This document shows positions 1 to 53,930 of a DNA stretch of 64,000 nt, in pieces. The notes under the pieces are model-generated. The model made no database searches and had not been told where the DNA came from. It saw only the letters and a list, made by a program, of their open reading frames with translations. The stretch is from the NCBI GenBank assembly GCA_951812955.1, contig OX638340.1:3392001-3456000 (forward strand), read 5' to 3'. Position 1 is the first letter of the stretch. Each line of letters starts with the position of its first letter. The stretch comes from an uncultured Gemmatimonadota bacterium. GTDB lineage: Bacteria > JAAXHH01. Made by a program: the position numbers and the translations under genes.

Positions 1-899
1 GACGTGCACCGTTCCCCGTTCAGGCTGTAGATCATGAATACCGTGGCGTCCAGGGCCCGGTCCAGATCCGCGTCGGCGAAGACGACCACCGGGTTCTTGC
101 CGCCCAGTTCGAAGTGCACCCGCTTGAGCGTATCCGCGCCCTGCCGCATGATGGCGCGGCCGGTCCGCGTGTCGCCCACGAATCCGACGGCCTTGATGTC
201 CGGGTGCTCGGTGAGCGCCCGACCCGTGGTTTCGCCGATCCCGTTGACCACGTTGACCACACCCGCCGGCACGCCGGCCTCATGGACCAGTTCGGCCAGC
301 CGCATGGCCGTGACCGGGCTCCACTCCGCAGGTTTGTGTACCACCGTGCAGCCGGCCGCCAGCGCGGGCGCCATCTTCCAGGTGCTGAGCATGAAGGGCG
401 TGTTCCAGGGCGTGATGATGCCCACGGGCCCGATGGGCTGCCTCAGGGTGTAGTTCAGGTGCCCGGCCGTTGGAAGCGCGAGCCCGTCCGATGCGCTCTC
501 GGCGCGGTCCGCGAAGAACCGGAAGTTCTCGGCGGCGCGCGACGCGGCCTTGGACATGAAACGGATAGGCTGGCCCGTATCATAGGTTTCCAGCAGGGCG
601 ATCTCTTCGCCGTGTTCCTCGATCAGGTCGGCGACCCGGTGCAGCAGCCGTTTTCGTTCCGTCCCCGGGGTGTCCCGCCAGTCTTCGAAAGCCTCCGTTG
701 CCGCACGGGCCGCGGTGTCGATCACCTCCGGTCCACCGTTCGCGACGGTGCACAGGAAGGAATTGTCGACCGGCGTGGCGTTCTCTAAGGATGCGCCTCC
801 TGCGGCTGGGACGGAGGAACCGCCGATGAGATGGCCGATGCCCTGTTCGCGGAACCGGGCGATGTGCCGCTCCGCTTTCGCCTGGTTCGGATGATTCGC
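1..899 (-). CDS. Aldehyde dehydrogenase family protein (HpaE-like). The 3' end lies outside the window. The 5' end is uncertain: no canonical in-frame start was found near the expected N-terminus.
   Basis: Manual minus-strand translation in the codon frame where low coordinate is divisible by 3 gives GPVGIITPWNTPFMLSTWK, FELGGKNPVVVF and IYSLNGERCT. These are the hallmark ALDH motifs. The N-terminal region HLIGGSSV...NATPVD aligns to HpaE-type enzymes. The ORF runs off the window start, so it is absent from the ORF track. Confidence 0.8.
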
Positions 900-913
900 C
901 GTGGCCTGGATTG

Positions 914-1669
914 CTATGATGCATCCTCCTTCAGACCGTCCACCACGTCGTTTTGCAGTGCGCCCAGGCCGTCCACCTCCAGCCGGAGCCGGTCCCCCGC
1001 GTGGATGTGGGAAATGCCCTCCGGCGTACCCGACCAGATCATGTCCCCTGGGCTCAGGGTCATGTACGCGGTGATGTACTCGATGAGTTCGGCCACGCTG
1101 TGGCGCAGGTCGCCCGACCAGCCCTCCTGGCGGAGTTCGCCGTTGACGTAAGTACGCAGGTGAACGTCCGTGGGATCGATTTCGTCCGCGGTGGTCAGGA
1201 AGGGACCCAGGGGACCGAAGGTGTCGAAACCCTTGGCCTTGATCGGCGGCCTGAAATAGTTGCTCACGAAGTCCCGTATCGTCAGGTCGTTTCCAATGGT
1301 GTAACCGCCCACGTAGTCCAGGGCGTACTCGGCCTTTACCTTGCGCGCCGGACGGCCGATCACGGCGACAAGTTCGCATTCGTAGTGCAGGTAATCGAAC
1401 TCAGGCGGGACGACGATCTTCGCACGGTGTCCGATGAAGGTCTGGGGCATCTTGTTGAACAGGATGGGCTCTTCGGGCAGGTCCAGGTTCAGTTCCTTCG
1501 CGTGCTCCGTGTATCCCAGCGCGACCCCGATGGCTTTGCTCGTATGGTCCACCGGAGGCAGGAACATGACGTCCTCCGGATCGTAAGCGACCGTGCCCAC
1601 CATGAGCTGTCCGTCTTCGTACACGGCCTCGAGTACCTGGCCGTTACAGGCGAACCGTGCAGTCTTCAT
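914..1669 (-). CDS. Fumarylacetoacetate hydrolase (FAH) family protein (2-keto-4-pentenoate hydratase / diketo-acid hydrolase-like)
   Basis: 251 aa ORF. FAH-fold signature: ...GYTIGNDLTIRDF...GKGFDTFGPLGP... Confidence 0.85.
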   Translation of the reverse strand: MKTARFACNGQVLEAVYEDGQLMVGTVAYDPEDVMFLPPVDHTSKAIGVALGYTEHAKELNLDLPEEPILFNKMPQTFIGHRAKIVVPPEFDYLHYECELVAVIGRPARKVKAEYALDYVGGYTIGNDLTIRDFVSNYFRPPIKAKGFDTFGPLGPFLTTADEIDPTDVHLRTYVNGELRQEGWSGDLRHSVAELIEYITAYMTLSPGDMIWSGTPEGISHIHAGDRLRLEVDGLGALQNDVVDGLKEDAS

Positions 1670-1681
1670 TTATACCCTCCG

Positions 1682-2551
1682 TCACACGTCATACCACGTG
1701 TCCACGCTATGCTCCAGTTCACCCGGCCGGGAATACCGCGTTTCCATGTCCCGTATCGCGCGTTCCACTTCCGTCGCGGCGGGAACGAGATCCCGCTGGC
1801 CGGCCGACAGGTCATAGACCGACCGCCCTTCCGTGGCAAGGGGACTGTCCAGGTCGATCCTCCCCGAGGGCCTGTGCTTGAGCAGGACAGTATAGGTGGC
1901 GCAGTAAAGGTCGGGGTCGTAGGCGCAAGGGGCCGCTTTCCTATTTTCGTCCACCAGGCCGAACCGCGCGGCCACCTCGCACAGGTCTTCCCACAGCGCG
2001 TACATGATGCCGGGTTGGGCGTCGCCTTTCTCCCGCTCGTGCAGGGGGCTGGCGCTCCGCGCCTTGCGTTGCGCCTCGATGAGCTGCCTTACCTGCCGGG
2101 AGGGCGTGGGAATGCCGAAGAAGGTCGATGTCTCGTCCATGAGATGGGATTCGACCGGGTCCGCTTCCCGGCGGACCAGTTCCACCAGCCGGTTGCCGAT
2201 GAGCGGTGTTTCCCCGATGAGGATGTGGCGGTCCTCCCGGTGCCGTTCCGCCCAGTCTCCGACCGCGCGCCGGGCCCACATGCCGACGGCCTTGCGGACC
2301 CCGGCGTGGGTGATTCCGTCCTGTTCGTGATAATGTTCCTTCACCCGGGCGTTTGTCAAGAACGGCAGCCGGCAGACGTCCCATTGGAGCAGGTGGGGCG
2401 TCCTGCCGCGGCCGTAGGCCAGGATGGCCAGTTGCTGCAGCAGCAGGCTCTTGCCGGTGCCCGGGAGTCCGGCCAGAAAAACCATCTTGCGGGTGTCCAC
2501 CAGGCTCCGGAGGGTCTGATACAGTCCGCTGTCCTCGGGAATCAGTAGCAT
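1682..2551 (-). CDS. P-loop NTPase (AAA_33 / gluconokinase-like kinase fold), function unknown
   Basis: Begins MLLIPEDSGLYQ... Walker A motif VFLAGLPGTGKSLL. The track ORF 1682..3439 is an Arg-rich spurious upstream extension that runs antisense through the next gene; the real start is the internal Met at 2551. Confidence 0.65.
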   Translation of the reverse strand: MLLIPEDSGLYQTLRSLVDTRKMVFLAGLPGTGKSLLLQQLAILAYGRGRTPHLLQWDVCRLPFLTNARVKEHYHEQDGITHAGVRKAVGMWARRAVGDWAERHREDRHILIGETPLIGNRLVELVRREADPVESHLMDETSTFFGIPTPSRQVRQLIEAQRKARSASPLHEREKGDAQPGIMYALWEDLCEVAARFGLVDENRKAAPCAYDPDLYCATYTVLLKHRPSGRIDLDSPLATEGRSVYDLSAGQRDLVPAATEVERAIRDMETRYSRPGELEHSVDTWYDV

Positions 2552-2577
2552 TATCCAGCCGGGTCCGCAGTCTCGGC

Positions 2578-4257
2578 CTATCCCGGCCCGTCTCCTCTCA
2601 CCCTGGGGCCTCGCTTGAACCGGTCCGCGTCCGGCATCTCGCCTACCGGGATCTCCACCACGGTCGGTCCATCTTCGGCGAACCCTTCGCGTATCGCCTC
2701 GCCCATCTCGCCGGGCGTGTGCGCCCGTAACCCCCTGGCGCCGAAGGATTCGACCAGCTTGACGAAATCGGGATTCCGCAGGTCGGACGCGATAACCCGG
2801 TTGCCGTACTGTTCCTTCTGCATCCGTTTCACGTTGCCGTAGGCATTGTCGTTGAATACGAGCGTGACCAGTCCGATGCCGTGCTGCACCGCCGTGGCCA
2901 GTTCCTGCACAGCGAACATGAACCCGCCGTCGCCGGCGATCGCCAGGACCGGTTTGTCCGGATGGGCGACCTTGACACCCAGCGCCGTGGGAAATCCCCA
3001 GCCCAGGGTGCCCTGGTAACCGGTGGATATGAAAGTATAGGGTTTGTACACCGGCATAACCTGCCGGCTTGCGTAGCCGACCTGGGTCAGCTCTTCCACG
3101 AAGATGCCGTCGTCGCCCAGTTCTTCGCGGATGACCCGGAGATAGGCGGCCTGGGGTTCCAGGGCGGCTGCGAGTTTTTCGTCTGTTTCTTTTTTTAATG
3201 CCAGCATCTCGGTTTTTAATGACGGCCGTCGCCGGTTGTGCTTCTCGACCAGGGGTATCAGCTGAGGCAGGGCGTCTTCGGTACGCGCCGTGATGGGCAG
3301 GTCCGGCATGGCGATCCGGTCGTGGGCGGCGCGATCCGCATCGATGCGGACGATGGTCAGGTCCTCGTCCACGCCCCAATTGAGTTGCGGGATCTCCATT
3401 CTGGATCCCAGGGCGAGGGCGACGTCCACCTTCGGCCACAGCCGGTGTCCCGACGGGTTGGTGATACTCAGGTAGTGGCGGCTGTCCAGCACGCCCCGTC
3501 CGGTGCGGTAGCTGATGACTGGCGCCTGGAGCAGTTCGGCGAGTTGCCGGACTTCTTCGGAAACGTTCATGGCGCCGCGGCCGACGAAGATCATGGGGTT
3601 CTCTGCGCGGCCGAGGATGCGCGCGGCCTGCGCCAGCGCTTCCGTGTCAACCGGGTCGGGCGATATGGGCAGCGGACCGGGAATGCGGTCCACCCGTCCC
3701 CCGGTCGCCAGTACGTCCCAGGGGCATTCCAGTCCCACGGGGCGCGGCCTGCCCGAATTCAGTTGCCGGATGGCCTCTGCCGTCCTGGACGGCGCCCCGG
3801 CGGTGCTGTCGATCCGGGCGGACCACTTGGTCAGGGACCGCAGCACGCCGAGCTGGTCGTTGATCTCGTGCAACTGGCCGACTCCGCGGCCGATAAACCT
3901 GGAAGGGATCTCGCCGGTCAGGCACAGGACCTTCGCGTTGGTGGCGTAGGACGTGCACAGGGCGCCGGTGCTGTTGAGAAACCCCGGTCCGGGCACCACG
4001 TTGTAGACGCCGGCACGGTCTGTCGAGAGGGCATACCCCAGGGCCATGTAGCCCGCGCCCTGTTCGTGGCGGGTGTGGATTACCCGGATATGGTCGCGGT
4101 GGTCGAAGAAGGCGTTGTAGAGCGCGTCGTTCTGCACGCCCGGCAGGCCGAAGACCGTTTCGATCCCATGGGATATCAGGGTACGGACGATCGCATCGGC
4201 GGTAGTCATTTCCTGCATGGAAGTCGAGGGAGCGGTAACGGCCGCGCGGTCGGTCAC
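2578..4257 (-). CDS. Thiamine-pyrophosphate-dependent enzyme, acetolactate-synthase-like family
   Basis: 559 aa. N-terminal pyrimidine-binding domain (ADAIVRTLISHGIETVFGLPG) and C-terminal TPP motif IAGDGGFMFAVQEL...NDNAYG. The start may be an internal Met at 4218. Overlaps the upstream gene stop by 4 nt. Confidence 0.85.
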   Translation of the reverse strand: MTDRAAVTAPSTSMQEMTTADAIVRTLISHGIETVFGLPGVQNDALYNAFFDHRDHIRVIHTRHEQGAGYMALGYALSTDRAGVYNVVPGPGFLNSTGALCTSYATNAKVLCLTGEIPSRFIGRGVGQLHEINDQLGVLRSLTKWSARIDSTAGAPSRTAEAIRQLNSGRPRPVGLECPWDVLATGGRVDRIPGPLPISPDPVDTEALAQAARILGRAENPMIFVGRGAMNVSEEVRQLAELLQAPVISYRTGRGVLDSRHYLSITNPSGHRLWPKVDVALALGSRMEIPQLNWGVDEDLTIVRIDADRAAHDRIAMPDLPITARTEDALPQLIPLVEKHNRRRPSLKTEMLALKKETDEKLAAALEPQAAYLRVIREELGDDGIFVEELTQVGYASRQVMPVYKPYTFISTGYQGTLGWGFPTALGVKVAHPDKPVLAIAGDGGFMFAVQELATAVQHGIGLVTLVFNDNAYGNVKRMQKEQYGNRVIASDLRNPDFVKLVESFGARGLRAHTPGEMGEAIREGFAEDGPTVVEIPVGEMPDADRFKRGPRVRGDGPG

Positions 4258-5225
4258 AGGTCGATCCGGTACAGGGGCTCCTGCCCCCGCGCGATCCGGT
4301 CGGTATTCTCGGCGGCCGCGGCGGCCCGGCGGCGTGATGTACCGTCCGTCACGCCGGCGATGTGGGGCGTAGCCACCACGTTCGGCAACTGGTAGACGGG
4401 CAGCGTCGAATCCGGAGGTTCCTGCGCGAACACATCGAGGCCGGCGCCACCGATCTTTCCGGCAACAAGGGCATCGTAAAGGGCCGCCTCGTCCACCAGG
4501 GCGCCCCGCGCCACGTTGATAATGCTCGCCGTCGGTTTCATGCGGCCCAGTTGCCGCGCATCGATGATATGGCGGGTTTCGTCGTTCAGGTGCAGGTGCA
4601 GGGAGAGGAAGTCGCTTTCGGCCACGACCCGGTCGAGATCGGCCGGCGTACCCATGAAGTCGGGCTGAATGTCGTCTAGCACATCGGATTCGATCTCGCG
4701 GACGTCAATACCCATGATCCGCATGCCGAAAGGCTTTGCCCTCCGCGCCAGCGCCTGGCCGCTCGCGCCGAATCCGACGATGCCCAGCGTCTGGTTTTCG
4801 AGTTCGTAGCCGAGCGGTCCGTAGAGTTGCCCCTCGCGGAAGTACTCCACCGCTTCCCGGTACCGCCTGGACAGCATGATCACGAACATCATGGCCGTTT
4901 CGGCCAGGGCGACGTCGCTGAAGAGTCCGGGCGTATTGGCCGTCGGGATGCCCTTCGTCTTGATATAGGACAGGTCGAAATTGTCGAAGCCCGTTCCCAC
5001 GATCTGCCACAGCCTGCAGTCGGTCGCGGCGTCCATCATTTCCCGCGTGCCCCGGCTGCCGCCCTGGTCGATCACCACGTCCATGCCGGCGAATTGCGGC
5101 GCCAGGGGCAGGTCGTCGTCGAGTTCCTTCAGTTCGTGCCGATCGCCGAGTGCCGCCTTGATGTTGTCGCACCATGGGGAGTAGATACGGCGCACGGGCA
5201 GCAGGATAACGTTCAGTCGATCCAT
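4254..5225 (-). CDS. D-isomer-specific 2-hydroxyacid dehydrogenase, NAD-binding
   Basis: 323 aa. Rossmann motif GIVGFGASGQALARRA and a catalytic region typical of the D-2-HADH family. Confidence 0.85.
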   Translation of the reverse strand: MDRLNVILLPVRRIYSPWCDNIKAALGDRHELKELDDDLPLAPQFAGMDVVIDQGGSRGTREMMDAATDCRLWQIVGTGFDNFDLSYIKTKGIPTANTPGLFSDVALAETAMMFVIMLSRRYREAVEYFREGQLYGPLGYELENQTLGIVGFGASGQALARRAKPFGMRIMGIDVREIESDVLDDIQPDFMGTPADLDRVVAESDFLSLHLHLNDETRHIIDARQLGRMKPTASIINVARGALVDEAALYDALVAGKIGGAGLDVFAQEPPDSTLPVYQLPNVVATPHIAGVTDGTSRRRAAAAAENTDRIARGQEPLYRIDL

Positions 5226-5234
5226 GTGAATTCC

Positions 5235-6107
5235 TCAATCCCCTTCTGGCTGATTTTCGATCAGGTCATCCACCGCCGCCGTATCCTGCACGTCGGTCCG
5301 GAACACCCAGGTGCCGTTCTTCACGTAATGTACCGCGAAAGCCAGGCGGGACCGGGTACGGGAACGGTTGGCGTAGGACCCGTGCACGGTCCTGCTGGTA
5401 AAGAACACGCCGCTGCCGCGGGGGACCGTCAACCGGACGAGGTCTTTTTCTTCTATGCCCACGACGTCGAAGGAGTAGAGTTTCTCGGTCCATTCGCGGC
5501 CGTCCGGCGAGCGCATGCCGTATTCACTCTCCCAGCTTACGTGCTCCGGATTGGTGTTCAGGCTCGTTTCGCGCAGGGCGTCCTTGTGGCTCCCCGGCGC
5601 CACGCACAGTCCGCCGTTCTCCGGGTCCGTATCGCTCATGGCGATCCAGCAGGCCATGAGGGTATCGGGTTCGTTGGGCAGGTAGTGGGAGTCCTGGTGA
5701 AGGGATATGCCGGCATCGCCCAGTTCTTCGCCCGGCCCGGCCGGTTGCTTGGCCATGTACATGGACTGCACGATGCGTGGCCGTCCGCCCAGGATCTGCG
5801 CGGCGACTCCCGCGACGTTCGGATGGGTGGCGAGTCCGCGCCAGTACGGATCGGATAGATGGGTACGGAGCCCTTGCCTCAGGGATTCTGCTTCCGGATC
5901 CGCCTGGTGACGCAGGAACGCTTCCACCTCGTCCGCAGACAGCAGGTCCGGGACGACGAGATAGCCATCCGCGTGAAACTGTTCGAGCTGCGTATCCTTA
6001 AGCTGGATGGGGGTGGTTTCCTTCGGCATGTTCGGCGGGACCTCACTGGATTCGAACGAAGGGATTGGGTCCGGGGAACTACATGCGCATGAGTCTGAAA
6101 CAATCAA
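5235..6107 (-). CDS. Phytanoyl-CoA dioxygenase (PhyH) family Fe(II)/2-oxoglutarate dioxygenase, paralog 1
   Basis: PhyH-like N-terminus (EQFHADGYLVVPDLLS) and an HxD iron motif (HQDSHY). The likely start is the internal Met at 6029. Confidence 0.8.
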   Translation of the reverse strand: MIVSDSCACSSPDPIPSFESSEVPPNMPKETTPIQLKDTQLEQFHADGYLVVPDLLSADEVEAFLRHQADPEAESLRQGLRTHLSDPYWRGLATHPNVAGVAAQILGGRPRIVQSMYMAKQPAGPGEELGDAGISLHQDSHYLPNEPDTLMACWIAMSDTDPENGGLCVAPGSHKDALRETSLNTNPEHVSWESEYGMRSPDGREWTEKLYSFDVVGIEEKDLVRLTVPRGSGVFFTSRTVHGSYANRSRTRSRLAFAVHYVKNGTWVFRTDVQDTAAVDDLIENQPEGD

Positions 6108-6179
6108 CTAAAGAAAACGGCCCGGAGAAGGCCGGTCAAGGAGTATGTCCCGGCCAGCCACCGCCGCGAATGCCGGACG

Positions 6180-7229
6180 CTACAACTGGTTGAGCAGCAT
6201 CAGTTCGCCGGGAAAGGGATGGAGGTAGGTCTGGTCTTTCAAGTAGGCGATGTCGAATTCGCGGACGTAGTGCCGCAGCATGACGACCGGGACGATCAGC
6301 GGGAGCAATTCCTCCCGGTAATTCTGAATCATGCGGGTCAGTTCCCGCCGGGTACGGCTGTCGAGCCGGTCGGAAACGTAGCCCGCCATGTGTTGCAACA
6401 CGTTGGTGTGGTTCCGCCGTGACGGGGTTCGTTTCATGACCGAGTTGAATTCGTCCAGGTAGGCATTCGCCAGGGCCTGGGTGGTCGCAAATCGTTCCGG
6501 TTTCGCCAGCAGCCGGCCGAGGCGGCGGGTGCCCTCCTGGCTGTGGGCCATGAGCAAGTACTTGTAGGCCCGGTGATATCCCATCAGCGATTCCCTGGTC
6601 AGGCCCGTAGTGACCAGTTGCAGCCAGCGGTAATAGGCGAACACCCGGCTGATGAAGTTCTCCCGGATCCTGAGGTTGTGCAACCGCTGCTCTTCTTCCA
6701 CCGGCAGATGGGGGAGGACTTCCATCAACCGGCGGGCGAATATGCCCCGCCCTTTTTTAAGTGTGGCGCCATCGGGCTGGACGACGGGTACGCGCTCCTT
6801 GCCGCAGGAGGGGGATCGGCTTTTCAGGATGTATCCGCTGAGCCTGGCCTGCTCCAGGGTCTGAACACGCTGCCGGGCGAACCAGTCCACCACGTCCGTG
6901 TGGTCGACGCCCGCCTTGGTCAGCATCCGGATGTCGCCGTCGACCCGCGTCAGCTGCACCGTCTCCCGCGGCATGCCCATGCCCGCCTCCACTTCCGGAC
7001 ATACCGGGACCCACTCCACGTACCGGCCGACCACGTCCACCAGGTAGTCGTCCCGTTTGTGCCCGCCGTCGTAGCGGACTCTCTCGCCGAGCAGGCAGGA
7101 GGAGATACCGATGCGCACGGGCAATTCGGCCCGGTGAATATCCAGCAGGGGTATTTCGCTCGAGGAAGTCCCGCCAAATACCGATTCGCTCATGATTCGT
7201 CCATTATGCTCTTCGCATTGCGGTTTCAC
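6180..7229 (-). CDS. DUF523 (TudS-like [4Fe-4S] desulfidase fold) fused to DUF1722 (YbgA-like)
   Basis: N-terminal GISSCLLGERVRYDGGHK...CPEV Cys pattern of DUF523, then a DUF1722-like C-terminal half. The likely start is Met at 7193. Confidence 0.7.
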   Translation of the reverse strand: MKPQCEEHNGRIMSESVFGGTSSSEIPLLDIHRAELPVRIGISSCLLGERVRYDGGHKRDDYLVDVVGRYVEWVPVCPEVEAGMGMPRETVQLTRVDGDIRMLTKAGVDHTDVVDWFARQRVQTLEQARLSGYILKSRSPSCGKERVPVVQPDGATLKKGRGIFARRLMEVLPHLPVEEEQRLHNLRIRENFISRVFAYYRWLQLVTTGLTRESLMGYHRAYKYLLMAHSQEGTRRLGRLLAKPERFATTQALANAYLDEFNSVMKRTPSRRNHTNVLQHMAGYVSDRLDSRTRRELTRMIQNYREELLPLIVPVVMLRHYVREFDIAYLKDQTYLHPFPGELMLLNQL

Positions 7230-7243
7230 TCATGATGCGCTCG

Positions 7244-7990
7244 CTACCATCGGTCGATGGCTCCGAGAAGCAGTTTCTGTTCCTTCGTTCCCTTTTCCCG
7301 TATGGCCGTCACCCGGGGTCCGTCGAAGGGTTCCCTGGACTTCATCCAGGCGTTCTGGTAGCACATGAGGCAGACACGGCGGTTCCGTTCCGACTGGTTG
7401 GCGGCCCCGCGGTGAAACAGCCAGCCGTCGAACAGGACGGCCTGTCCCGGCCTGGCCAGCACGTGTTTTTCATCGGGGAACCGGGCATGCGTCTCCGGCG
7501 GCTTGAAGGGCGCCCTGTGGCTGCCAGGCACGATGACGATAGGACCGTTCTCCATGGTCAGCTGGTCCAGGTAATATCCGCAGTTGACCTGTCCCGGCTC
7601 GTTGCCGTAAGGCGGCGGTTCCGGGTCTTTGGGCCAGGGAATGTCCCGGTGCCAGTTCTGGTCCGGCTCCCCGGGTTTAGTCACCCGCGCCGTCGCGCTG
7701 TGCAACTGCACGCAATTGCCCAGGATGGCCTTCATACGGTCCAGGACGGGCGGGTTGTCGAGGAGGAAGGCGAACCGGTCGTCTTCCTCAAGGAGTTGGT
7801 GCGTGAAGGACTCGCCGCGCCGCTGGTAGGTCTCGTCCAGGGCGTCCCGGAGCTGTTCGACCTGCGGGACGGTCAACGCGTCCTCCACCACGAGATAGCC
7901 CCACTTCCTGAAGAAGGCGGCTTCCCGTTCCAGTTCCGGCGTCAGGTCCGGATTCATCCGCGGACCGACGATTTCGGCGTCATATCCCAT
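7244..7990 (-). CDS. PhyH-family Fe(II)/2-oxoglutarate dioxygenase, paralog 2
   Basis: 248 aa. WGYLVVEDAL... and a WHRD iron-binding motif. Confidence 0.8.
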   Translation of the reverse strand: MGYDAEIVGPRMNPDLTPELEREAAFFRKWGYLVVEDALTVPQVEQLRDALDETYQRRGESFTHQLLEEDDRFAFLLDNPPVLDRMKAILGNCVQLHSATARVTKPGEPDQNWHRDIPWPKDPEPPPYGNEPGQVNCGYYLDQLTMENGPIVIVPGSHRAPFKPPETHARFPDEKHVLARPGQAVLFDGWLFHRGAANQSERNRRVCLMCYQNAWMKSREPFDGPRVTAIREKGTKEQKLLLGAIDRW

Positions 7991-8064
7991 AGGTATCCCT
8001 GGTCGGTCGCGCGCCTGCTGGCCGGCACGACCTCCGGCACGCTACACGCCGTCCGCTCGCGACA

Positions 8065-9189
8065 TCAGAAGAAGCCGAGGTCTTCCCGGGCCGCCCGACG
8101 GGCCGTCTCCTCGTCCAGCGTCACACCCAGGCCCGGCTTCATGGGCAGGTCGATGTGCCCGTTCCGGATCAGGTCTCTTTCCACCGTCAGCGTATTCCAA
8201 ACTTCGTTGTCCAGGTGATGGAATTCGAGCACCTGGAAGTTGGGCACCGCCGCGCACAGGTGACACACGGCCACCGTGCCGATGGGTCCACAGATGTTGT
8301 GGGGCGACAGGGGGATGTAGTACATGTCCGCCAGGTCGGCGATTTTCCGGCCCTCGAGCAGTCCACCCGCCTTGGCGTGATCGGGCGAGATGATGTCCGC
8401 CGCCTGCGCCTCGATGAGGTCCCGGAATCCGTGGCGCGTGTAGAAGTTCTCCCCGGTGCAGATGGGGACGCGGGTAGCCTGGGTCACTTTCGCCATGGCC
8501 TCGATGTTCTCCGGCGGCACGGGATCCTCCAGCCACATCAGGTCCAGGTCCTCGCAGGCGTAAGCCACCTTGAGTATGTCCACCGGGGCGTAATTCCAGT
8601 GGGCGTCGATGAGCAGGTCGGTATTGGGGTTCAGCGAATCCCGAAGTGCGGTGATGACGTCAATGAAGAAGGCCACGTCGTCGTTGCTGATGGTCCGGTT
8701 GTACCGGTCCCGCCGGTTCGGCCGCGGATCGATGTCGAACTTGATGGCGTCGAAGCCGCGTGCTTCAACGGCCCGGGCTTTCTCCACATAGGCTTCCGGC
8801 GTCTCGTCATCCCCTGCGTGGCAGTCGTTGTAAACGCGGATGCGGTCCCTGAACTTGCCGCCGAGCAGTTGCCAGATGGGCACGCCGCAGGCCTGTCCCG
8901 TGATGTCCCACAGGGCCATTTCAATCCCGCTGATGGCGCTCATGACCGCGCCCTGGTAGAAACCGGACGCCGACATGGAAGACATCATGTCGTGGAAGAG
9001 CTTGTCCACGTTCCGCGGGTCCTGGCCGATGAGCGCCCGGTCCCGCAGCCTCGGGTCGGTGACGATCTGGTGGACCCCGGCGCCGTGATAGGCTTCGCCG
9101 ATGCCGACCAGCCCCTCGTCGGTTTTGACTTTTACCAGTACCCAGGGCATGGGCTGGAGCAGCACGGCCCCCACGTGTGTGATTTTCAT
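8065..9189 (-). CDS. Enolase-superfamily (mandelate racemase / muconate lactonising enzyme) sugar-acid dehydratase-like protein
   Basis: Starts MKITHVG..., then GIGEAYHG, ALWDI, PIWQLLGG and KFDIDP. The pattern resembles D-mannonate/galactonate dehydratases. The track ORF extends 28 aa further upstream to 9273. Confidence 0.8.
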   Translation of the reverse strand: MKITHVGAVLLQPMPWVLVKVKTDEGLVGIGEAYHGAGVHQIVTDPRLRDRALIGQDPRNVDKLFHDMMSSMSASGFYQGAVMSAISGIEMALWDITGQACGVPIWQLLGGKFRDRIRVYNDCHAGDDETPEAYVEKARAVEARGFDAIKFDIDPRPNRRDRYNRTISNDDVAFFIDVITALRDSLNPNTDLLIDAHWNYAPVDILKVAYACEDLDLMWLEDPVPPENIEAMAKVTQATRVPICTGENFYTRHGFRDLIEAQAADIISPDHAKAGGLLEGRKIADLADMYYIPLSPHNICGPIGTVAVCHLCAAVPNFQVLEFHHLDNEVWNTLTVERDLIRNGHIDLPMKPGLGVTLDEETARRAAREDLGFF

Positions 9190-9327
9190 TTGGACTCCAT
9201 GACTGCCTGACTGCCGGACAATGGGTTCCCACGCTTCGCCCGCCCGATCCTCAAAGGTGCGAACGCGGTACACTAAAGACGCAAGCGCGGTACACTACAG
9301 CACGAGCGCGGTACATTCAGTAACCGA

Positions 9328-9939
9328 TCATTGCATCCTGGTCAGCGCGTCCCGGGCATTGAGATAGGGTACGGATCGCTCCAGGAACGTTTCAACCAGG
9401 TGACCGGGCGTGAGTTCGGAAGTATCGATGTCGAACTTTCGTTTGATCCAGGACTGCGCGACTTCCTCTTCGAACCGTTCCAGGACGTGCGGCACGTCCT
9501 CCGATGGAACCAACTGGCGTGGATGGGGATCCTGCTCCATGCGCCGCCGGATCACCTCGGGACGTGCGTGAAGATGGACCAGGATCGCGTCGCCGGGCAT
9601 GTCCGGTTCGTACTCACGCACCGCGATATTGATCCCCGGATAATAGTAACAGGGACCGTACACCATCTCCTCGATATGGAACCCGCCCAGGAGGATGTGG
9701 TCGAACTTGTGCATCAGCCGGACGTGGTACACGATCTGGAACCGCTGAAACCGTTCCTTTATGGCCGGCAGCATGTCGATGAAGCCCTGCTGCTCCTCCT
9801 CGTCGAGGTGGTAGGCGTCCGGGATGGTGAAGTGGTCGTCCAGGTGGTGATGAACGCCCCGCTCGTTCCCCCAGTTGTAGAGGCCGTCGATCAGCGTCGT
9901 GACCCCCGAGTATTCGCAGCCTGCGGCGATCAACCGCAT
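9328..9939 (-). CDS. Hypothetical protein. The N-terminal AGCEYSGVTTL resembles a sulfotransferase/P-loop PAPS-binding motif, but this is weak.
   Basis: 203 aa ORF with balanced composition, set inside a tightly spaced co-directional gene array. No confident family assignment. Confidence 0.5.
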   Translation of the reverse strand: MRLIAAGCEYSGVTTLIDGLYNWGNERGVHHHLDDHFTIPDAYHLDEEEQQGFIDMLPAIKERFQRFQIVYHVRLMHKFDHILLGGFHIEEMVYGPCYYYPGINIAVREYEPDMPGDAILVHLHARPEVIRRRMEQDPHPRQLVPSEDVPHVLERFEEEVAQSWIKRKFDIDTSELTPGHLVETFLERSVPYLNARDALTRMQ

Positions 9940-9970
9940 GGACGCTCCTTTCGTCGATATCGGAATGGTT

Positions 9971-11089
9971 TCAATCCAGTTCCTCGTAAGCCTGCGTATA
10001 CCGCTGCAGCGCGTCGTAATCCAGGTCGCAACCCAGTCCCGGCTTCATTGGCGTGGGCACGTGGCCGTCGACAAAGGTAATGGGTTCGAGGATCAGGTCG
10101 TCCTCCCGGGTCCACCCGCCGACGAAATCGGACGCCATGGTGCAGTTCGGCGCCGCGGCCGCGGCATGGACGAAGGAGGTGTCCGAAATCCCCAGGTCGT
10201 TTCCCGATCCGTGCCAGCACGGGAGTCCGGCCGAGGCGGCCGTGGCGGCATTGCGCTGGAAGCCGAACATGCTGCCACCCAGGTTTACGCAATCCACCAC
10301 GCCCCGGCCCCCGTCGGCCTGCAGGGCGCGGACCACGCCCGGCCCGTCTCCCAGGTGCATGGCCAGGGGGAAAGGGATGGCCCCGTGGATCTCTTCGTAA
10401 CCCTCGATATCGGACTTGGGTATGGGGTCCTCGAACACCTCCACGTTTCCCAGCGGTTCGAGGCGCCCCGCCAGTTCGATGGTCTGCGCGGCGGTGTAGA
10501 ACCGTTCGTTGGGGTCCACGGTCACCTTGAATCCGGGCCCCGCCACGTCGCGCATGGCCTTCAGGCGCTCGTACATGGGTTCCTCGAGCCGGCACTTGAT
10601 CTTGACCCCCGTAAACCCTTGCCGCATCCCTCGTTCCACGGCCCTGGCGCCGTCCTCCGGCGTCTGGTGGCCCATCCAGTAATCGGCGCGGACACGGTCG
10701 CGGACGGCGCCTCCGAGCAACGCATGCACGGGCAGTTCGCGGACCCGTCCCACGAGGTCCAGCACGGCCATCTCGAAGGCGTCGTACGCCGGACCGGTAC
10801 CTACCGTGATGTCGTCGGCCGCCCTTTCGGCCCGCCGTCCGAAGATATCCTGCGGGGCCACGTCCTCGGGGTCGCGGCCGATCAGCAGCGCCGCGCCTTC
10901 CCTGACCTCCTCGATGGGTACGCCGCGCCAGGTCTCCCCGATGCCCGAGAACTCGGTGTCCGTATCGACACGGATGATGTGCTTCGGGACCTCGTCCCAG
11001 CCGGCCTTCGCAGCGTATTCAGGGCTGTGGACGCGGCCCGGTATGGTGGGTACGACGACGGTCCAGACTGCAACGGATGTGATCTTCAT
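9971..11089 (-). CDS. Enolase-superfamily (MR/MLE) dehydratase-like protein, second paralog
   Basis: 372 aa. MKITSVAV... with the capping/barrel organisation of the MR/MLE family. Confidence 0.75.
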   Translation of the reverse strand: MKITSVAVWTVVVPTIPGRVHSPEYAAKAGWDEVPKHIIRVDTDTEFSGIGETWRGVPIEEVREGAALLIGRDPEDVAPQDIFGRRAERAADDITVGTGPAYDAFEMAVLDLVGRVRELPVHALLGGAVRDRVRADYWMGHQTPEDGARAVERGMRQGFTGVKIKCRLEEPMYERLKAMRDVAGPGFKVTVDPNERFYTAAQTIELAGRLEPLGNVEVFEDPIPKSDIEGYEEIHGAIPFPLAMHLGDGPGVVRALQADGGRGVVDCVNLGGSMFGFQRNAATAASAGLPCWHGSGNDLGISDTSFVHAAAAAPNCTMASDFVGGWTREDDLILEPITFVDGHVPTPMKPGLGCDLDYDALQRYTQAYEELD

Positions 11090-11122
11090 CCAGGACTCCC
11101 TGTTTGGGGCGAAAACGTCGCT

Positions 11123-12316
11123 TCAGTTGTTCCGCCACCCTGCGATAAAAGTGTCCACATTCAGGCAGGACGGCATTTCCTCGAAGTAGTAGTGCATGGG
11201 GTCCGACTGAAACCCTGGCACGTACTGTACGGTTTCTGATTGCACCATGCCGTCGAGTGGGGCGAAGCGCTGCCAGAGGGTGTCCAGTTCGCCGTCGGCA
11301 AACCGGGGTTTCAGGTCCTCGTCGTGCGATATGTCGCTGCCGTAGTGCGGCCGGACGGGATGTGCGGAGAACTTCATCTTGTAGACAATCTTGGACAGGA
11401 GCACGACGCACACGATACGCCCGATCTCGCCGGGGTGCAGCGCGGCAAGGCCTTCCTGGAAAGCGTCCTCGTCCCGGCCGATGACGGCGCGGAAAATGGA
11501 CTCTATCAGGTCTGACTCCTCGTCATACCTGCGCTTGACGTCCTCGAAAACGGCCTGCAGATCGGAGGGCAGGCATTCGGTGAAGGAGAGATCCCTGAAG
11601 GTGCGGTTGACGTAGGGGAAGATCGGACCGCCGTAGGACCGGTAGCCCAGGTGGATGGTGCGCCTCATCCGGGCGCTGTAATTGCTCCCCCAGTGCAGGA
11701 TCGTATTGGTATAGACCACCCCGTCGCCCGCATTCAACTCGACCTGGACGGCGCCGGGCAGTACCTCGCGGGGATTCCGTCCCAGGCAGCGGTTCTCTTC
11801 GGCCGTGTTCCCCCGTTGATGACTCTTCGGCACGACCCAGAGCACGTTGTCATCGTAGAGCGGGATGTTCCACTGGAGATAACCGGGGGCGTTGTGCAGC
11901 AGGTCATCCTGCAGGCCCCTGAGCGGCGCCTGGTCGATGGGATGTATGTCCCGGTGCCACGCCGCCGGACCGTGGTCTTCCACCGGGTTGCACATGAAGA
12001 AGAAACCGGTGTTTCCCGCGGCTTTCGCGTTCATGATGCGCCGGCTGACCCCCATGGTATGCTCGTGCAGGCCGAAGGCCATGGTATTGGCCGTGTCCTC
12101 GTCCACGAGGGATTCGAAGTTCAGCCGGGGCTGGGAACTGACCGCCCACTGGCCTCCGGGCGGATCGTCCGGTTTCCTTTCCCTGGCCCAGATTTCCTTC
12201 TGACGATCCACCATGCGCTCGAAGCTGTCCCTTAACGGGTCTAGCCAGTCAGGGGGAACCACCCCACGAAGCACGATGAAACCGTCTTCGAACAGTTTCC
12301 GAGGATCGAAATTCAT
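11123..12316 (-). CDS. PhyH-family Fe(II)/2-oxoglutarate dioxygenase, paralog 3 (long form)
   Basis: 397 aa. AAWHRDIHP iron motif and PhyH-like core. Confidence 0.75.
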   Translation of the reverse strand: MNFDPRKLFEDGFIVLRGVVPPDWLDPLRDSFERMVDRQKEIWARERKPDDPPGGQWAVSSQPRLNFESLVDEDTANTMAFGLHEHTMGVSRRIMNAKAAGNTGFFFMCNPVEDHGPAAWHRDIHPIDQAPLRGLQDDLLHNAPGYLQWNIPLYDDNVLWVVPKSHQRGNTAEENRCLGRNPREVLPGAVQVELNAGDGVVYTNTILHWGSNYSARMRRTIHLGYRSYGGPIFPYVNRTFRDLSFTECLPSDLQAVFEDVKRRYDEESDLIESIFRAVIGRDEDAFQEGLAALHPGEIGRIVCVVLLSKIVYKMKFSAHPVRPHYGSDISHDEDLKPRFADGELDTLWQRFAPLDGMVQSETVQYVPGFQSDPMHYYFEEMPSCLNVDTFIAGWRNN

Positions 12317-12599
12317 GTAAGGTTTACCGCAAAAAGATGCGACGCGGGACGATGCCCGCGCCGTAGAACAGGGTTAACGTTCAATCTACATCGGCCCATG
12401 GGAATGTCAAGAGTGGGAAGACACAAATTGCGTCTTTGTTTGACTCTGAGCCGGCACCGCCCTGAGACTGCCGCGTGGACGGGTATTTCGTCTTGCAGGA
12501 AGCCCGCCGCGAAATTAGATTACGGTCCTGTAATTCAATAAACCCTGGTCCGGTTCGTTTCCACGAATACCGGTTTTCTTCCTTGTCGACGGAGTGCTC

Positions 12600-13205
12600 A
12601 TGGCGGTCCAGAAAGACTGGTGCCGGTTTGTCCTGCTGCTCATCGACGTCCAGCGGGATTTCTGGCCGGAGGAGACGGCCGAGTCTTTCCCCGATTTCCC
12701 GTCGAACGTCGAACGGCTGCTCGAATATTGCCGCGTTTCCGGTCTCGACGTCGTCCACGTGCGTGCGGATTTCGAACCGGACGGATCGGACTGGATGACG
12801 CCCTATCGGATTAAGGGGGAAACACCCTGCATACGCGGCACGCGGGGTGTGGAGGTGCTGCCCTGCGCCATGGAAATGGACGGCGAACCCGTCCTGCGCA
12901 AGCGGACCTTCGACGCCTTCCTTCAGCCGGACCTATTATCCCGTTTACATCGTGCGCGTAAATCCTATATACTGATTGCGGGACTTGAGACCTCCGTCTG
13001 CGTGCTTCTTACCGCTGCTTCCGCCGTACAGCACGGGTTCCTGGCCGCGGTCGTCGCGGACTGCTGCGCCGACGATCCCGCCAGGCACGAGGCGGTGGTA
13101 AACGGATATCCCTTCATGTTTGACCGCACTACCCTCGCCAGGCTCGAAACCGACCACGACCGCTGGATGGACATGCTGAACAAGCTGCAGCATGCCGGAG
13201 GATGA
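12600..13205 (+). CDS. Isochorismatase-family cysteine hydrolase
   Basis: [12 protein letters not shown]... is typical of the isochorismatase fold. GGAG lies 5 nt before the ATG at 12600. The track start at 12594 is an upstream GTG. Confidence 0.75.
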
Positions 13206-14248
13206 CCGTGAACCATTTGAATGTAGGGATCGTCGGCCTCGGCTGGGTGGCCGGGGCGCACATCGACGCCTTCAAGGCCGTGACCGGGGCCGACGTTACC
13301 GCCGTATGCTCCCGGAGGAACCATGACGACGCGGAACTTTCCGCGCAGTTCGGCACGCCGCTGAAGTCCTGTGTCGATTATGGCGATCTGCTCGCCGATC
13401 CCGACGTCCACGTGGTCGACATCTGCACGCCCCACCCCTTCCACGCCGACCAGGCCGTGGCCGCCGCGGAGGCCGGCAAGCATCTCATCATCGAGAAGCC
13501 CATTGCCCTGACTCCCACGGACGCCGTGCGCATCCAGTCCGCCGTCGAGAAGGCCGGGGTGTGTGTCTGCGTCTGTTTCGAATGCCGGTACAGCGCGCAC
13601 TTCACCATGATCCGGTCCGTCATCGACCAGGGGCTGCTCGGTGATCTACACTACGCCGAAGTCGACTACTACCATGGCATTGGTCCCTGGTACGGGCAGT
13701 ACGGCTGGAACGTGAAAAAGGACATGGGCGGGTCCAGCCTGCTGACGGCGGGGTGCCACGCCCTGGACGCCCTTCTGTTCTTCATGGACGGCAAGGTGGA
13801 GGAAGTCACCAGCTACAGCACGAAGTCCTCCAGCCCCCACTTCGCGCCGTACGAGTACGATACCACGAGTGTTTCCATCCTGAGATTCGAGGGCGGCAAG
13901 CGGATCGGCAAGGTGACCTCCAGCATCGACTGTCTGCAGCCCTACTATTTCCACGTGCACCTGGTAGGTAGCGAAGGAAGCCTGCTGGACAATCGGTTCT
14001 ATTCGCATAAGCTCGATGGTCTGGACCGCAGCCGTTGGAGCACGCTCGAGACCTCCCTGATCGATTCGGGCGACGTCCAGGATCACCCTTACGAACCCCA
14101 GTTCCAGGCCTTCGTCGACAGTATCAACGGAGGCGGACCCATGCCGCTCACGGACATGCATACCGCCTACGAGTCGCACCGCGTCGTCTTCGCGGCCGAC
14201 CGTTCAGCTGCGGAGGGCCGGTCTGTGCGCCTGGACGAGGTGGACTAG
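13202..14248 (+). CDS. Gfo/Idh/MocA-family NAD(P)-dependent oxidoreductase
   Basis: [17 protein letters not shown] Rossmann N-terminus. Overlaps the previous gene by ATGA. Confidence 0.8.
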
Positions 14249-48199: not shown

Positions 48200-48325
48200 G
48201 CGGCGACTGTTGAACCGCGACCGTCGAGCGGTAGCTGATGAGCGGGACGCGTCGATTCGTGTAATAACGACGGACGGTGGCCGGCATACCGGACCGTGCC
48301 CGCGGCTCTAACGGAACTCCTCCCC

Positions 48326-52684: not shown

Positions 52685-53776
52685 TTGATGTCCACGGTCT
52701 ATCGCGTCGGCATAATCGGGTGCGGCAGCATCTCGCACCTCCACATGAAGGGATACCTGGGCGAAGAGCGGTTCGAGGTCGTCGCACTATCGGACCCGGT
52801 TGCCGAGGCCAGGAAGGATTTCGGTGACCGCTACGGAATCGAAAAACGCTATGCCGATGTCCGTGAGATGATGGACACCGAGGGCCTGGACGTCGTCAGC
52901 ATCTGCACCTGGCACAAGCTGCACGCCCCCCTGACCATCGCCGCCTGCGCGCGTCGGCCGAAGGCCATCCTGTGCGAGAAGCCCATGGCCGTCAACATGG
53001 GGGAGTGCGACGAGATGATGATCGCGGCGCGGCGGAACGACGTGAAGCTCGCCATCGCCCACCAGCGCCGTTTCAATCCGGTCTGGACCGACGCCCGGAA
53101 CCTGGTGGCGGAAGGGGCGATCGGCGACGTGCGCCACGTCCACTGCAGTGGCAGCCAGGGCCTGCTGAACGACTGCTCCCACATGTTCGATTTCATGCGC
53201 TACGTCCTGGGCGATCCCGCGCCGGAGTGGGTGATGGGGAACATCGAACGCAAGACCGACCGGTACGAGCGGGATATCCGCATCGAGGACCGCAGCGCGG
53301 GAATCGTGGGCTTTGACAACGGCGCCGTGGGACAACTCCTGCAGGAGCTTCATCCGGAACGCCGCCAGGGCGGTTACCTCTACGGAACTGACGGCATGAT
53401 GGACGTGAACGAGCAGCGCGTTCTGCTTATCAATTCGAAGACCGGCGGCTGGGAGGAACGGCCGTCCACCGGCGAGGATCCGAGTGTGGGCCAGGCCGTG
53501 GAACTGGCTGACTGGATCGAAGGCAAGTCGGAACACCGGGGAGAGGCCTCGAACGGCCGGGCTGCCGTGGAGATCATCATGGGGATCTACGAGTCGGCGC
53601 GGCTTCACGAGGTCGTCCAGATGCCCGTGCGCACCCACAGTTCGCCCATCGAGGAAATGCTCGAGGCTGGCGACCTGCCCGTGGAACGCCCCGGCCGGTA
53701 CGACATTCGCGCCTTCCTCCTGCGCGGGGAGTCCATGCAGGGTGAGGAGCCGGACGAAGAAGATGAGGAAGAATGA
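52685..53776 (+). CDS. Gfo/Idh/MocA-family oxidoreductase
   Basis: RVGIIGCGSISHLHMKGY Rossmann N-terminus and an acidic C-terminal tail. Confidence 0.8.
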   Translation: MMSTVYRVGIIGCGSISHLHMKGYLGEERFEVVALSDPVAEARKDFGDRYGIEKRYADVREMMDTEGLDVVSICTWHKLHAPLTIAACARRPKAILCEKPMAVNMGECDEMMIAARRNDVKLAIAHQRRFNPVWTDARNLVAEGAIGDVRHVHCSGSQGLLNDCSHMFDFMRYVLGDPAPEWVMGNIERKTDRYERDIRIEDRSAGIVGFDNGAVGQLLQELHPERRQGGYLYGTDGMMDVNEQRVLLINSKTGGWEERPSTGEDPSVGQAVELADWIEGKSEHRGEASNGRAAVEIIMGIYESARLHEVVQMPVRTHSSPIEEMLEAGDLPVERPGRYDIRAFLLRGESMQGEEPDEEDEEE

Positions 53777-53789
53777 CCGGTCACGGTCC

Positions 53790-53868
53790 CGTGACCACGC
53801 TCAGACCGACGAGACCCGCGACCACGCTCAGACCGACGAGGCCCGTGACCACGCTCAGCAGGGCGAAG
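53790..53868. repeat. Tandem repeat, 27-nt unit in 3 copies, intergenic
   Basis: CGTGACCACGCTCAGACCGACGAGACC-like units at 53790, 53817 and 53844. Confidence 0.75.
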
Positions 53869-53930
53869 TTCGATCCGAGGCGGATATCGGCGGAGCAGGC
53901 GACGGTGCACAGATCGGCGAAGCACGCAAA

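Follow-up and report, generated by a model that had tools for sequence, protein, structure and literature searches.

We analysed a 64,000-nt stretch (hereafter, the window) from an uncultured Gemmatimonadota bacterium, positions 3,392,001 to 3,456,000 of contig OX638340.1 (assembly GCA_951812955.1), which carries an array of seven minus-strand genes at window positions 5235–12316 (Table 1). Three of these encode PhyH-family Fe(II)/2-oxoglutarate (2OG) oxygenases, named here by length PhyH397, PhyH248 and PhyH290; two encode enolase-superfamily enzymes, MLE372 and MLE402; one encodes a TudS(DUF523)–DUF1722 fusion; and one encodes a 203-aa protein, hyp203. An initial annotation had listed the seven genes and assigned them these domains, which our analysis bears out: all are intact open reading frames (ORFs) at these positions, and Pfam agrees. 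The array forms part of a longer run of genes, and its core, a trio of PhyH oxygenase, hyp203 and a galactonate-dehydratase-like enzyme, recurs in several bacterial lineages.

Table 1. Genes and sequence signals of the array and its surroundings, in window coordinates
Feature	Position	Strand	Description
PhyH397	11123..12316	-	PhyH-family Fe(II)/2OG oxygenase, C-terminal helical domain
MLE372	9971..11089	-	Divergent enolase-superfamily enzyme, glucarate-dehydratase-related type
hyp203	9328..9939	-	P-loop kinase-fold protein, Walker-A Lys replaced by Val
MLE402	8065..9273	-	Galactonate-dehydratase-like enolase-superfamily enzyme; probable start ATG 9189, 374 aa
PhyH248	7244..7990	-	PhyH-family oxygenase, presence variable
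RudS-like TudS(DUF523)+DUF1722 fusion	6180..7229	-	Both Pfam domains above cut-off
PhyH290	5235..6107	-	PhyH-family oxygenase; probable start ATG 6029, 264 aa
D-isomer-specific 2-hydroxyacid dehydrogenase	4254..5225	-	Pfam 2-Hacid_dh_C, 185 bits
Thiamine diphosphate (ThDP)-dependent enzyme, PRK08266 subfamily	2578..4257	-	NCBIfam NF006122, 732.8 bits (cut-off 571)
P-loop ATPase, canonical GLPGTGKS Walker A	1682..2551	-	AAA matches weak only
FAH-family protein (FAH251), HpaG C-terminal-domain type	914..1669	-	TIGR02303, 282.4 bits (cut-off 276.4)
HpaE-type aldehyde dehydrogenase	3..893	-	N-terminal 297 aa, truncated by window edge
Isochorismatase-family hydrolase	12594-13205	+	Pfam; divergent from array
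GFO/IDH/MocA oxidoreductase	13202-14248	+	Pfam; divergent from array
Fourth PhyH	55779-56672	+	Pfam PhyH, 68.4 bits
Promoter-like TTGACA-16-TAGATT	12383..12410	-	Array head; best sigma-70-like match in 1-13300
5′ leader hairpin	12330..12363	-	9 bp, 6-nt loop, then U-run; ~15 nt before PhyH397 start codon
Conserved intergenic element GACAnACTCCTTGACC ... TTTTCTT ... GATTGT	6100..6149	-	Between RudS-like gene and PhyH290

Pfam assignments are matches above the gathering score, and NCBIfam models were judged against their own cut-offs. The G+C content (GC) of the window is ~62%, and third-position GC is ~0.8 in real genes, the frames of the array included, which marks those frames as coding. The long plus-strand ORFs that overlap the array (4827–5858, 7232–8218, 8155–9210 and 9899–11239, up to 446 aa) have high first-position and lower third-position GC and are shadow ORFs, not genes. 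Intergenic gaps, which had been put at 14–140 nt, measure 14–74 nt from the longest ORFs; with the starts called in relatives the largest gaps grow to ~140–150 nt, in agreement with the earlier range.

Exact-sequence look-ups of hyp203, the 100%-identical P0001 and FAH251 found nothing on record, so we took the genomic context from relatives, using a tblastn survey of the 80 best hyp203-bearing loci (numbered from L001). One of them, L005, lies on a 3.9-Mb chromosome of a metagenome-assembled genome (MAG), OY762445.1, that is 95–96% identical to the window in DNA sequence. Across the 80 loci, the entire array, with the GFO gene at one end and the FAH gene at the other, is present in ~20 species of one clade with 72–99% protein identity. 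Members of this clade come from sponges, corals and seawater, and their records carry the label Latescibacterota, Gemmatimonadetes or just 'bacterium'. The divergent isochorismatase and GFO pair is kept in 19 of the 80 loci and only ever together with the array.

Continuation of the run and the RudS-like gene

The array does not end with the seventh gene. Downstream of PhyH290 the next genes follow on the same strand at intervals of 9, −4, ~26, 12 and ~20 nt, the negative value being a 4-nt overlap of the 2-hydroxyacid dehydrogenase and ThDP enzyme genes. The co-directional run thus extends over at least 12 genes in the window and, in relatives, over at least 20, and the earlier proposal of one seven-gene operon is not supported in that form, the more so as a conserved element follows the DUF523/DUF1722 gene (see below).

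The additional genes point to a different chemistry from that of the array. The nearest named relative of the ThDP enzyme is 5-guanidino-2-oxopentanoate decarboxylase (PRK07524, 342 bits). FAH251 scores 156 bits against a 500-bit cut-off for the diketo-rhamnonate hydrolase model, and the HpaG type fits instead. The truncated HpaE-type aldehyde dehydrogenase is 95% identical by tblastn to its counterpart in L005, which reaches 761 bits on TIGR02299 (cut-off 638). The P-loop ATPase at 1682–2551 has a 289-aa orthologue in L005 and is unrelated to hyp203. In three related contigs, the same strand continues with HpaD, a LAT-type amino-acid transporter, an arylsulfatase-like protein, PhyH and Amidohydro_2 and, further along, with kynureninase, a flavoprotein resembling kynurenine 3-monooxygenase (KMO) or VioC and a second aldehyde dehydrogenase; HpaD (TIGR02295, 391 versus 321 bits) and kynureninase (464 versus 246 bits) both exceed their NCBIfam cut-offs. 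We saw no HpaF, HpaH, HpaI or 4-hydroxyphenylacetate (4-HPA) hydroxylase in the part of this continuation that we examined. By its family matches, the downstream half is devoted to 2-oxo-acid and aromatic catabolism, not to sugar-acid chemistry, and the Hpa and kynurenine genes all lie outside 5235–12316. We read the seven genes as the upstream part of a longer modular catabolic island rather than a self-contained operon, as set out below.

The gene at the junction of the two halves is a likely outsider. Its product combines PF04463 (135.9 bits) and PF08349 (129.5 bits), both above cut-off, and its SSCLLG, VCPEV and SPSCG segments align with those of TudS (6z92) that hold the three [4Fe–4S] Cys ligands and the CPE Glu. 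The same two-domain architecture, with the Cys ligands, the CPE Glu and SPSCG, is found in RudS, a TudS–DUF1722 fusion shown experimentally to remove 4-thiouridine from tRNA (PMC11417400). RudS genes frequently, though not obligatorily, lie in light-responsive operons with photolyase, LitR and carotenoid genes (PMC11417400); family scans found none of these in the window, where the gene sits instead inside a catabolic run. At the corresponding place, L025 carries amidohydrolase and metallophosphoesterase genes, and L032 and L042 carry amidohydrolase, RmlA-like and metallophosphoesterase genes (all named by sequence reading, not by family scan), so the array is a mosaic. Because it has the RudS architecture and is replaceable in related loci, the RudS-like gene is probably a clade-specific passenger and not an enzyme of the catabolic pathway. 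The initial annotation was thus right about the TudS-type domains, whereas the pathway role that it gave this protein finds no support. Likewise, from the combination of PhyH, MR/MLE and DUF523/DUF1722 genes that it had singled out, what recurs elsewhere is PhyH with the hyp203–MLE402 pair; the DUF523/DUF1722 member is clade-specific and exchangeable.

A recurrent trio of oxygenase, kinase-fold protein and dehydratase-like enzyme

The 203-aa protein had been called an orphan with a sulfotransferase-like N-terminal motif, and neither description stands. No Pfam family matches it above the gathering score, but the protein database holds 594 homologues, with relatives in 325 species, mostly MAGs under the labels Latescibacterota and Gemmatimonadota, with Poribacteria, Zixibacteria, Handelsmanbacteria, Chloroflexota and Opitutales among the rest; several come, by name, from sponge or coral projects. 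The fold is a P-loop of the nucleoside or nucleoside monophosphate (NMP) kinase type, and the N-terminal GCEYSGVTT is a Walker-A loop with Val at the position of the Lys. That Val is present in 15 of 15 aligned sequences of the subfamily; among 431 cluster representatives of the wider family, Lys occupies this site in the nearest outgroups and Thr in many members. The Lys is thus replaced in hyp203 relative to YorR of B. subtilis (2axp), thymidylate kinase, NadR ribosylnicotinamide kinase and gluconate kinase. The kinase-type fold and the Val-bearing Walker-A loop rule out a sulfotransferase identity and, with the Lys/Thr/Val pattern of the family, indicate that hyp203 is probably not a classical kinase. 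The subfamily also has an invariant His/Asp-rich block, HHxLDDHFTIPD, for which we know of no counterpart in nucleoside/NMP-type kinases. Among the matches listed there are no fusion proteins, and none exceeds 283 aa.

Two further observations concern the hyp203 family at large. G7, E9, G12, D35, R133 and F156 are invariant across the wider family while the Walker Lys site varies, which is unusual for a P-loop family. And in L036, L038, L044, L048–L051 and others, which belong to large Latescibacterota genomes, hyp203 has a divergent GFO/IDH/MocA gene on one side and an apparent class-V aminotransferase gene on the other; by sequence reading, the aminotransferase has an apparent twin-arginine signal, and TPR proteins, FG-GAP/VCBS-like proteins and NrfH/NrfA-like cytochromes are encoded nearby.

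The two enolase-superfamily enzymes each carry Pfam MR_MLE_N and MR_MLE_C and are only 26% identical to each other; PDB sequence searches found no characterised close relative of either. The best family matches of MLE402 are all acid-sugar dehydratases (galactonate, 258.2 bits; gluconate/galactonate, 220; mannonate, 193), whereas its score on the L-rhamnonate dehydratase model is 110 bits against a 393-bit cut-off. Its motifs IDAHW, LEDP, TGEN, PDH and PHN, read directly, we take to be those of GalD-type enzymes, and it has K-x-D in place of KxK. MLE372 reaches 71 bits on the galactonate dehydratase model; its closest solved relatives, 3vdg and 3vc5, are glucarate-dehydratase-related proteins without assigned function. 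At aligned positions MLE372 keeps KxK, the Asp and Glu ligands and the His, with His instead of Asn at the third ligand position.

Three lines of evidence tie hyp203, MLE402 and a PhyH oxygenase together. First, hyp203 and MLE402 are adjacent in 37 of the 80 genome loci, with MLE402 orthologues 68–98% identical overall and 68–88% identical outside the clade that holds the whole array. The adjacency survives a reversal of gene order in Litorilinea MAGs (L081, L082) and a divergent orientation in L061 and L072. Second, when MLE402 was used as a query against marine metagenomes, hyp203 was found nearby for 24 of the 45 homologues with at least 65% identity and sufficient upstream sequence, and for none of the 20 homologues with 43–50% identity. 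Third, among 23 distinct loci outside the clade, the pair has a PhyH neighbour at 1.5 kb or less in 11, against ~1.2 expected from the flank background given below (~9-fold). This enrichment is confined to the pair: near hyp203 without an MLE partner, in pooled non-clade loci, we counted 7 PhyH genes against ~6 expected, and a general enrichment of PhyH near hyp203 is therefore rejected. The PhyH subfamily that accompanies the pair varies; it is of the PhyH248 type in some loci, of a type 50% identical to the fourth PhyH of the window in others (L029, L099, L100, L104) and of still other types elsewhere (L002, L045). By their labels, the lineages that carry the trio of PhyH, hyp203 and GalD-like enzyme span at least five phyla: Latescibacterota, Gemmatimonadota, Poribacteria, Chloroflexota (Litorilinea) and Opitutales-type.

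The PhyH proteins themselves are diverse. Against a Pfam PhyH (PF05721) cut-off of 22 bits, PhyH290 scores 105.6, PhyH248 82.4, PhyH397 47.7 and the fourth PhyH, whose location at 55779 had been given correctly, 68.4. Since no two of the four are more than 25% identical and all keep the HxD iron motif, they are old paralogues, neither pseudogenes nor recent duplicates. No equivalog model is approached by any of them (ectoine hydroxylase, 41 versus 336 bits), and PDB sequence searches yielded no characterised close relative of any paralogue, with matches of at most 59 bits. In PhyH397, the Pfam domain spans residues 10–219 with HxD at residue 121, and H121, D123, H208 and R218/R219 are invariant in 28 homologues; direct reading places the distal His and the 2OG Arg in TVHGS...RSR of PhyH290 and in LFHRG...RNRR of PhyH248. 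PhyH397 belongs to a subfamily of ~395-aa proteins with more than 1000 members. PhyH248 follows MLE402 in L025, L032, L042, L094, L095 and L098 and is missing, with no room left for the gene, from 7 of ~25 syntenic species, so it does not catalyse an obligatory step.

The structural neighbours of PhyH397 raise the question of whether the locus serves not catabolism but the biosynthesis or tailoring of a modified sugar or secondary metabolite. The AlphaFold2 model (mean confidence, pLDDT, 90) shows a jelly-roll followed by C-terminal helices at 244–357, and the nearest folds, DhiD, EvdO1, SptF and FtmOx1, without exception tailor natural products. Sequence reading also places RmlA-like and glycosyltransferase-like genes beside the hyp203–MLE402 pair in L032/L042 and L081. 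Which structural neighbours are found, however, depends on which proteins have been crystallised, the genes that flank the core (Hpa, kynureninase, sulfatases and transporter) are catabolic, and scans of the window found no polyketide synthase (PKS), non-ribosomal peptide synthetase (NRPS), terpene or other scaffold enzyme. We regard a biosynthetic role as highly improbable.

PhyH genes had been taken to be normally solitary, which they are not in these bacteria: the background is ~18 per Mb in the outer flanks of related loci (the count across the related loci themselves is biased by the choice of loci and is not usable as a genome-wide figure), and in sponge Poribacteria PhyH accounts for more than 1.9% of genes (PMC3909097). 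PMC6946804 likewise reports an expansion of the enolase superfamily in SAR202. This density suggests that there might be no functional unit at all, only genes of two abundant families grouped by chance in same-strand runs, and long co-directional runs are indeed common in the window. Such expansions in marine and sponge bacteria, together with the near-background PhyH count around hyp203 in the pooled loci, favour that explanation. But three PhyH genes lie within 7 kb where 0.13 are expected, PhyH is ~9-fold enriched beside the pair outside the clade, the hyp203–MLE402 adjacency survives rearrangement in several phyla, and promoter and leader are conserved. Chance grouping is accordingly very unlikely in our estimation. 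In our reading, the abundance of PhyH genes reflects both a lineage-wide expansion and a genuine local association with the dehydratase pair.

The two published surveys concern the same niche and the same families, with diverse and mostly uncharacterised paralogues, as in the clade of the window; in the passages searched they give family counts and not a linkage of PhyH, enolase-superfamily and kinase-fold genes such as that found here. No description of a module of PhyH, kinase-fold protein and GalD-like enzyme was found by literature searches for PhyH together with mandelate racemase, sulfatase or fucoidan, or in papers on Latescibacterota and PAUC34f, one of them about sponge-associated MAGs, in keeping with the earlier remark that no described pathway could be recognised. 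The trio and the hyp203 family are the part of the locus that remains unexplained and reasonably new, the RudS and Hpa sides being already explained.

Tandem PhyH arrays also recur in glycan-type contexts. At 6001–11425 of L088/L089, a 62%-identical PhyH397 orthologue heads three tandem PhyH genes (397, 235 and 238 aa), with a GH95 glycosidase gene directly after them and LamG, GFO and 2-hydroxyacid dehydrogenase genes before them.

Candidate transcription signals at the head and within the array

The promoter-like TTGACA-16-TAGATT at the array head is the sole match in the window, with none in 100 shuffles. All 15 species aligned share its −35 hexamer; at the −10 position, 13 have TAGATT and 2 have TAAATT. 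The leader hairpin, first picked up by a terminator-like scan, is recovered by RNAalifold across 15 species with 9 pairs, 3 of which show compensatory double changes; it could be an attenuator or an RNA-stability element. No Rfam family matched anywhere in the window, the hairpin included.

The element at 6100–6149 is near-invariant in 12 species and contains CTCCTTGACC and a T-run. PhyH290, which is 264 aa as called in relatives, probably starts downstream of it, and the upstream TTG of the longest ORF falls within this conserved non-coding element. The element is a candidate terminator, internal promoter or operator; its conservation suggests a boundary or an internal promoter, hence a second transcription unit, and with it the claim of one operon is not established. 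The element has CTTGAC in common with the head promoter. In the divergent intergenic region upstream of the array, a conserved block at ~12510–12530, CCGTAATCTAATTT, has TAGATT in its reverse complement, as has the array promoter, and may be the promoter of the isochorismatase and GFO pair.

Putative modules and substrate class

We interpret the locus as a modular catabolic island, a reading to which we assign a probability of about 50%. Module A (12410 to 7244), driven by the conserved promoter and leader hairpin, would comprise PhyH397, MLE372, hyp203, MLE402 and PhyH248, with the trio of PhyH Fe(II)/2OG oxygenase, hyp203 and galactonate-dehydratase-like enzyme as its core. Its oxygenase or oxygenases would modify a carboxylated sugar-like substrate oxidatively, by hydroxylation or removal of a substituent; MLE402 would then abstract the alpha-proton and eliminate water to give a 2-keto-3-deoxy acid; and hyp203, instead of working as a classical kinase, may be an accessory or partner protein that binds substrate or nucleotide. 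Module B (6029 to 1 and beyond), with PhyH290, the D-2-hydroxyacid dehydrogenase, the ThDP decarboxylase-type enzyme, the P-loop ATPase and the HpaG-like and HpaE proteins, and extending in relatives to HpaD, the LAT-type transporter, arylsulfatase, PhyH and kynurenine-pathway genes, would process 2-hydroxy and 2-oxo acids and aromatic ring-cleavage products.

Carbohydrate-type genes recur around the components of module A. Sulfatases, a UxuA-like TIM-barrel protein and GFO/IDH/MocA surround the hyp203–MLE402 pair in L001–L004, and the neighbours of hyp203, PhyH397-type and PhyH297-type genes include GFO/IDH/MocA, UxuA-like proteins, sulfatases, GH95, L-rhamnose mutarotase (RhaM), aldo-keto reductase (AKR) and Amidohydro_2. 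The fourth PhyH of the window is itself flanked by AKR, L-rhamnose-mutarotase-family, lactonase-like NHL/SGL and Amidohydro_2 proteins; its region (53484–63629, plus strand) also encodes a GAF–PAS hybrid histidine kinase/response regulator with a DNA-binding output and an NAD epimerase-family protein, and the set looks like a deoxy-sugar oxidative locus.

The initial annotation had gone further, with all seven genes as one operon in which a deoxy-sugar acid with substituents (fuconate or rhamnonate, for example) undergoes oxidative tailoring by hydroxylation, demethylation or desulfation and is then dehydrated, the TudS-like and 203-aa proteins being pathway enzymes. Part of this is sustained: the linkage of PhyH with MR/MLE genes is genuine (11 of 23 loci versus ~1.2 expected), the neighbours are of carbohydrate type, including the L-rhamnose-mutarotase-family, AKR, lactonase-like and Amidohydro_2 genes that adjoin the fourth PhyH, a PhyH397 orthologue lies near a GH95 fucosidase-family gene, and sulfatases flank the pair in L001–L004. 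No sugar-pathway equivalog is reached, however: MLE402 falls far short on the L-rhamnonate dehydratase model (110 versus 393 bits), and FAH251 fits the HpaG C-terminal domain, not the diketo-deoxy-rhamnonate hydrolase. The DUF523/DUF1722 protein matches the tRNA enzyme RudS and is exchangeable, hyp203 is not sulfotransferase-like, the run exceeds seven genes, and PhyH248 is dispensable in 7 species. As originally framed, the proposal seems to us improbable.

Comparison with known sugar-acid routes leads to a similar division. The non-phosphorylative pathways of L-fucose and L-rhamnose use a sugar dehydrogenase, a lactonase, an enolase-superfamily dehydratase (FucD, LRA3), a 4-dehydrogenase and an FAH-family diketo hydrolase; these pathways, and those of pentonates, were reportedly described by Yew et al. 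in 2006 and by Watanabe and Makino in 2009. The window resembles them in combining an enolase-superfamily dehydratase-like enzyme with GFO/IDH/MocA, FAH and 2-hydroxyacid dehydrogenase genes, and in having RhaM, AKR, lactonase-like and Amidohydro_2 genes close to the fourth PhyH. It differs in that its enzymes meet no equivalog for fucose, rhamnose or galactonate enzymes and its FAH protein is HpaG-type, and to our knowledge the known non-phosphorylative sugar pathways employ neither 2OG oxygenases nor a hyp203-like protein. The downstream genes, for their part, resemble the homoprotocatechuate meta-cleavage (hpaD/E/G) and kynurenine pathways, passing the HpaG-C, HpaE, HpaD and kynureninase models, but the core of PhyH, MR/MLE and hyp203 recurs elsewhere without Hpa or kynurenine genes and so is not explained by those systems.

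The aromatic genes nevertheless suggest a different account, in which the whole run is one pathway for an aromatic or amino-acid-derived acid, organised on the logic of the mandelate pathway: MLE372 and/or MLE402 would act as a racemase on 2-hydroxy-acid enantiomers, the D-2-hydroxyacid dehydrogenase would yield the 2-oxo acid, and ThDP-dependent decarboxylation, oxidation of the resulting aldehyde by an aldehyde dehydrogenase and HpaD/E/G ring cleavage would follow, with the PhyH enzymes as side-chain hydroxylases. The mandelate pathway unites an enolase-superfamily enzyme with these same enzyme families. In addition, the 4-nt overlap couples the dehydrogenase and ThDP genes translationally, the nearest named relative of the ThDP enzyme decarboxylates an amino-acid-derived 2-oxo acid, MLE372 retains KxK and His, like two-base racemases, and HpaG, HpaE, HpaD, the LAT-type transporter, arylsulfatase and kynureninase genes lie downstream. 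By contrast, MLE402 best matches acid-sugar dehydratases and has K-x-D, not KxK; outside the clade, the trio of hyp203, MLE402 and PhyH is accompanied by carbohydrate-type and not aromatic genes; the element at 6100–6149 divides the two halves; and HpaF, HpaH, HpaI and the 4-HPA hydroxylase were not seen in the continuation examined. We consider this account improbable.

Several results weigh against the modular-island reading. MLE402, although matched over its full length, stays below the D-galactonate dehydratase equivalog (PRK14017, 258.2 versus 311 bits), and its top PDB match, 2qq6 (306 bits), was solved without an assigned function; for these reasons 'acid sugar' describes MLE402 at the level of the family. 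Given the aromatic genes downstream, the upstream enzymes could also act on aromatic or amino-acid-derived acids. The hyp203–MLE402 pairing is specific and frequent, not obligate: roughly one in two close MLE402 orthologues lacks a hyp203 gene within 3 kb, and numerous hyp203 genes adjoin a GFO oxidoreductase and a class-V aminotransferase instead; an obligate hyp203–MLE402 complex is therefore too strong a proposal. The division into two transcription units, finally, is suggested by conserved sequence: RNAalifold gave no consensus hairpin for the element at 6100–6149, which we therefore do not call a terminator, and the terminator-like scan returned 10 matches where 9.7 are expected by chance, so it provides no evidence either way on operon boundaries.

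Within the modular-island reading, a more specific conjecture is that marine and sponge-associated bacteria have in the trio a catabolic module not described before, in which the 2OG oxygenase oxidatively removes or installs a substituent of a sugar acid (O-methyl or sulfate, for instance) ahead of dehydration, with hyp203 in a new, non-kinase catalytic or partner role. We consider this tentative and, in all its particulars, rather unlikely. In certain sponge symbionts no protein family is more numerous than PhyH, and bacteria abundant in the ocean carry expanded sets of enolase-superfamily paralogues. Substrates are known for hardly any of these proteins, and the linkage within the trio offers a specific handle on them. 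If the oxygenases strip substituents from sugars, they would represent a new route in the turnover of marine glycans and dissolved organic matter; if not, the locus would be an ordinary mosaic of catabolic genes.

Elsewhere in the window, several further genes were noted. Directly after the divergent GFO gene, a 935-aa protein (14280–17087, plus strand) joins a Ser/Thr protein kinase to PD40/WD40-like beta-propeller repeats, and L005 has a large gene (~936 aa) at the matching position. A second ThDP-dependent enzyme of 563 aa (23822–25513, minus strand) is encoded 20 kb from the first, beside a PHO4 phosphate transporter gene. On the plus strand, a 579-aa protein (45532–47271) fuses a PfkB carbohydrate kinase to a SIS (sugar isomerase/phosphosugar-binding) domain, and a 662-aa protein (48296–50284) fuses homocysteine S-methyltransferase and methylenetetrahydrofolate reductase domains.

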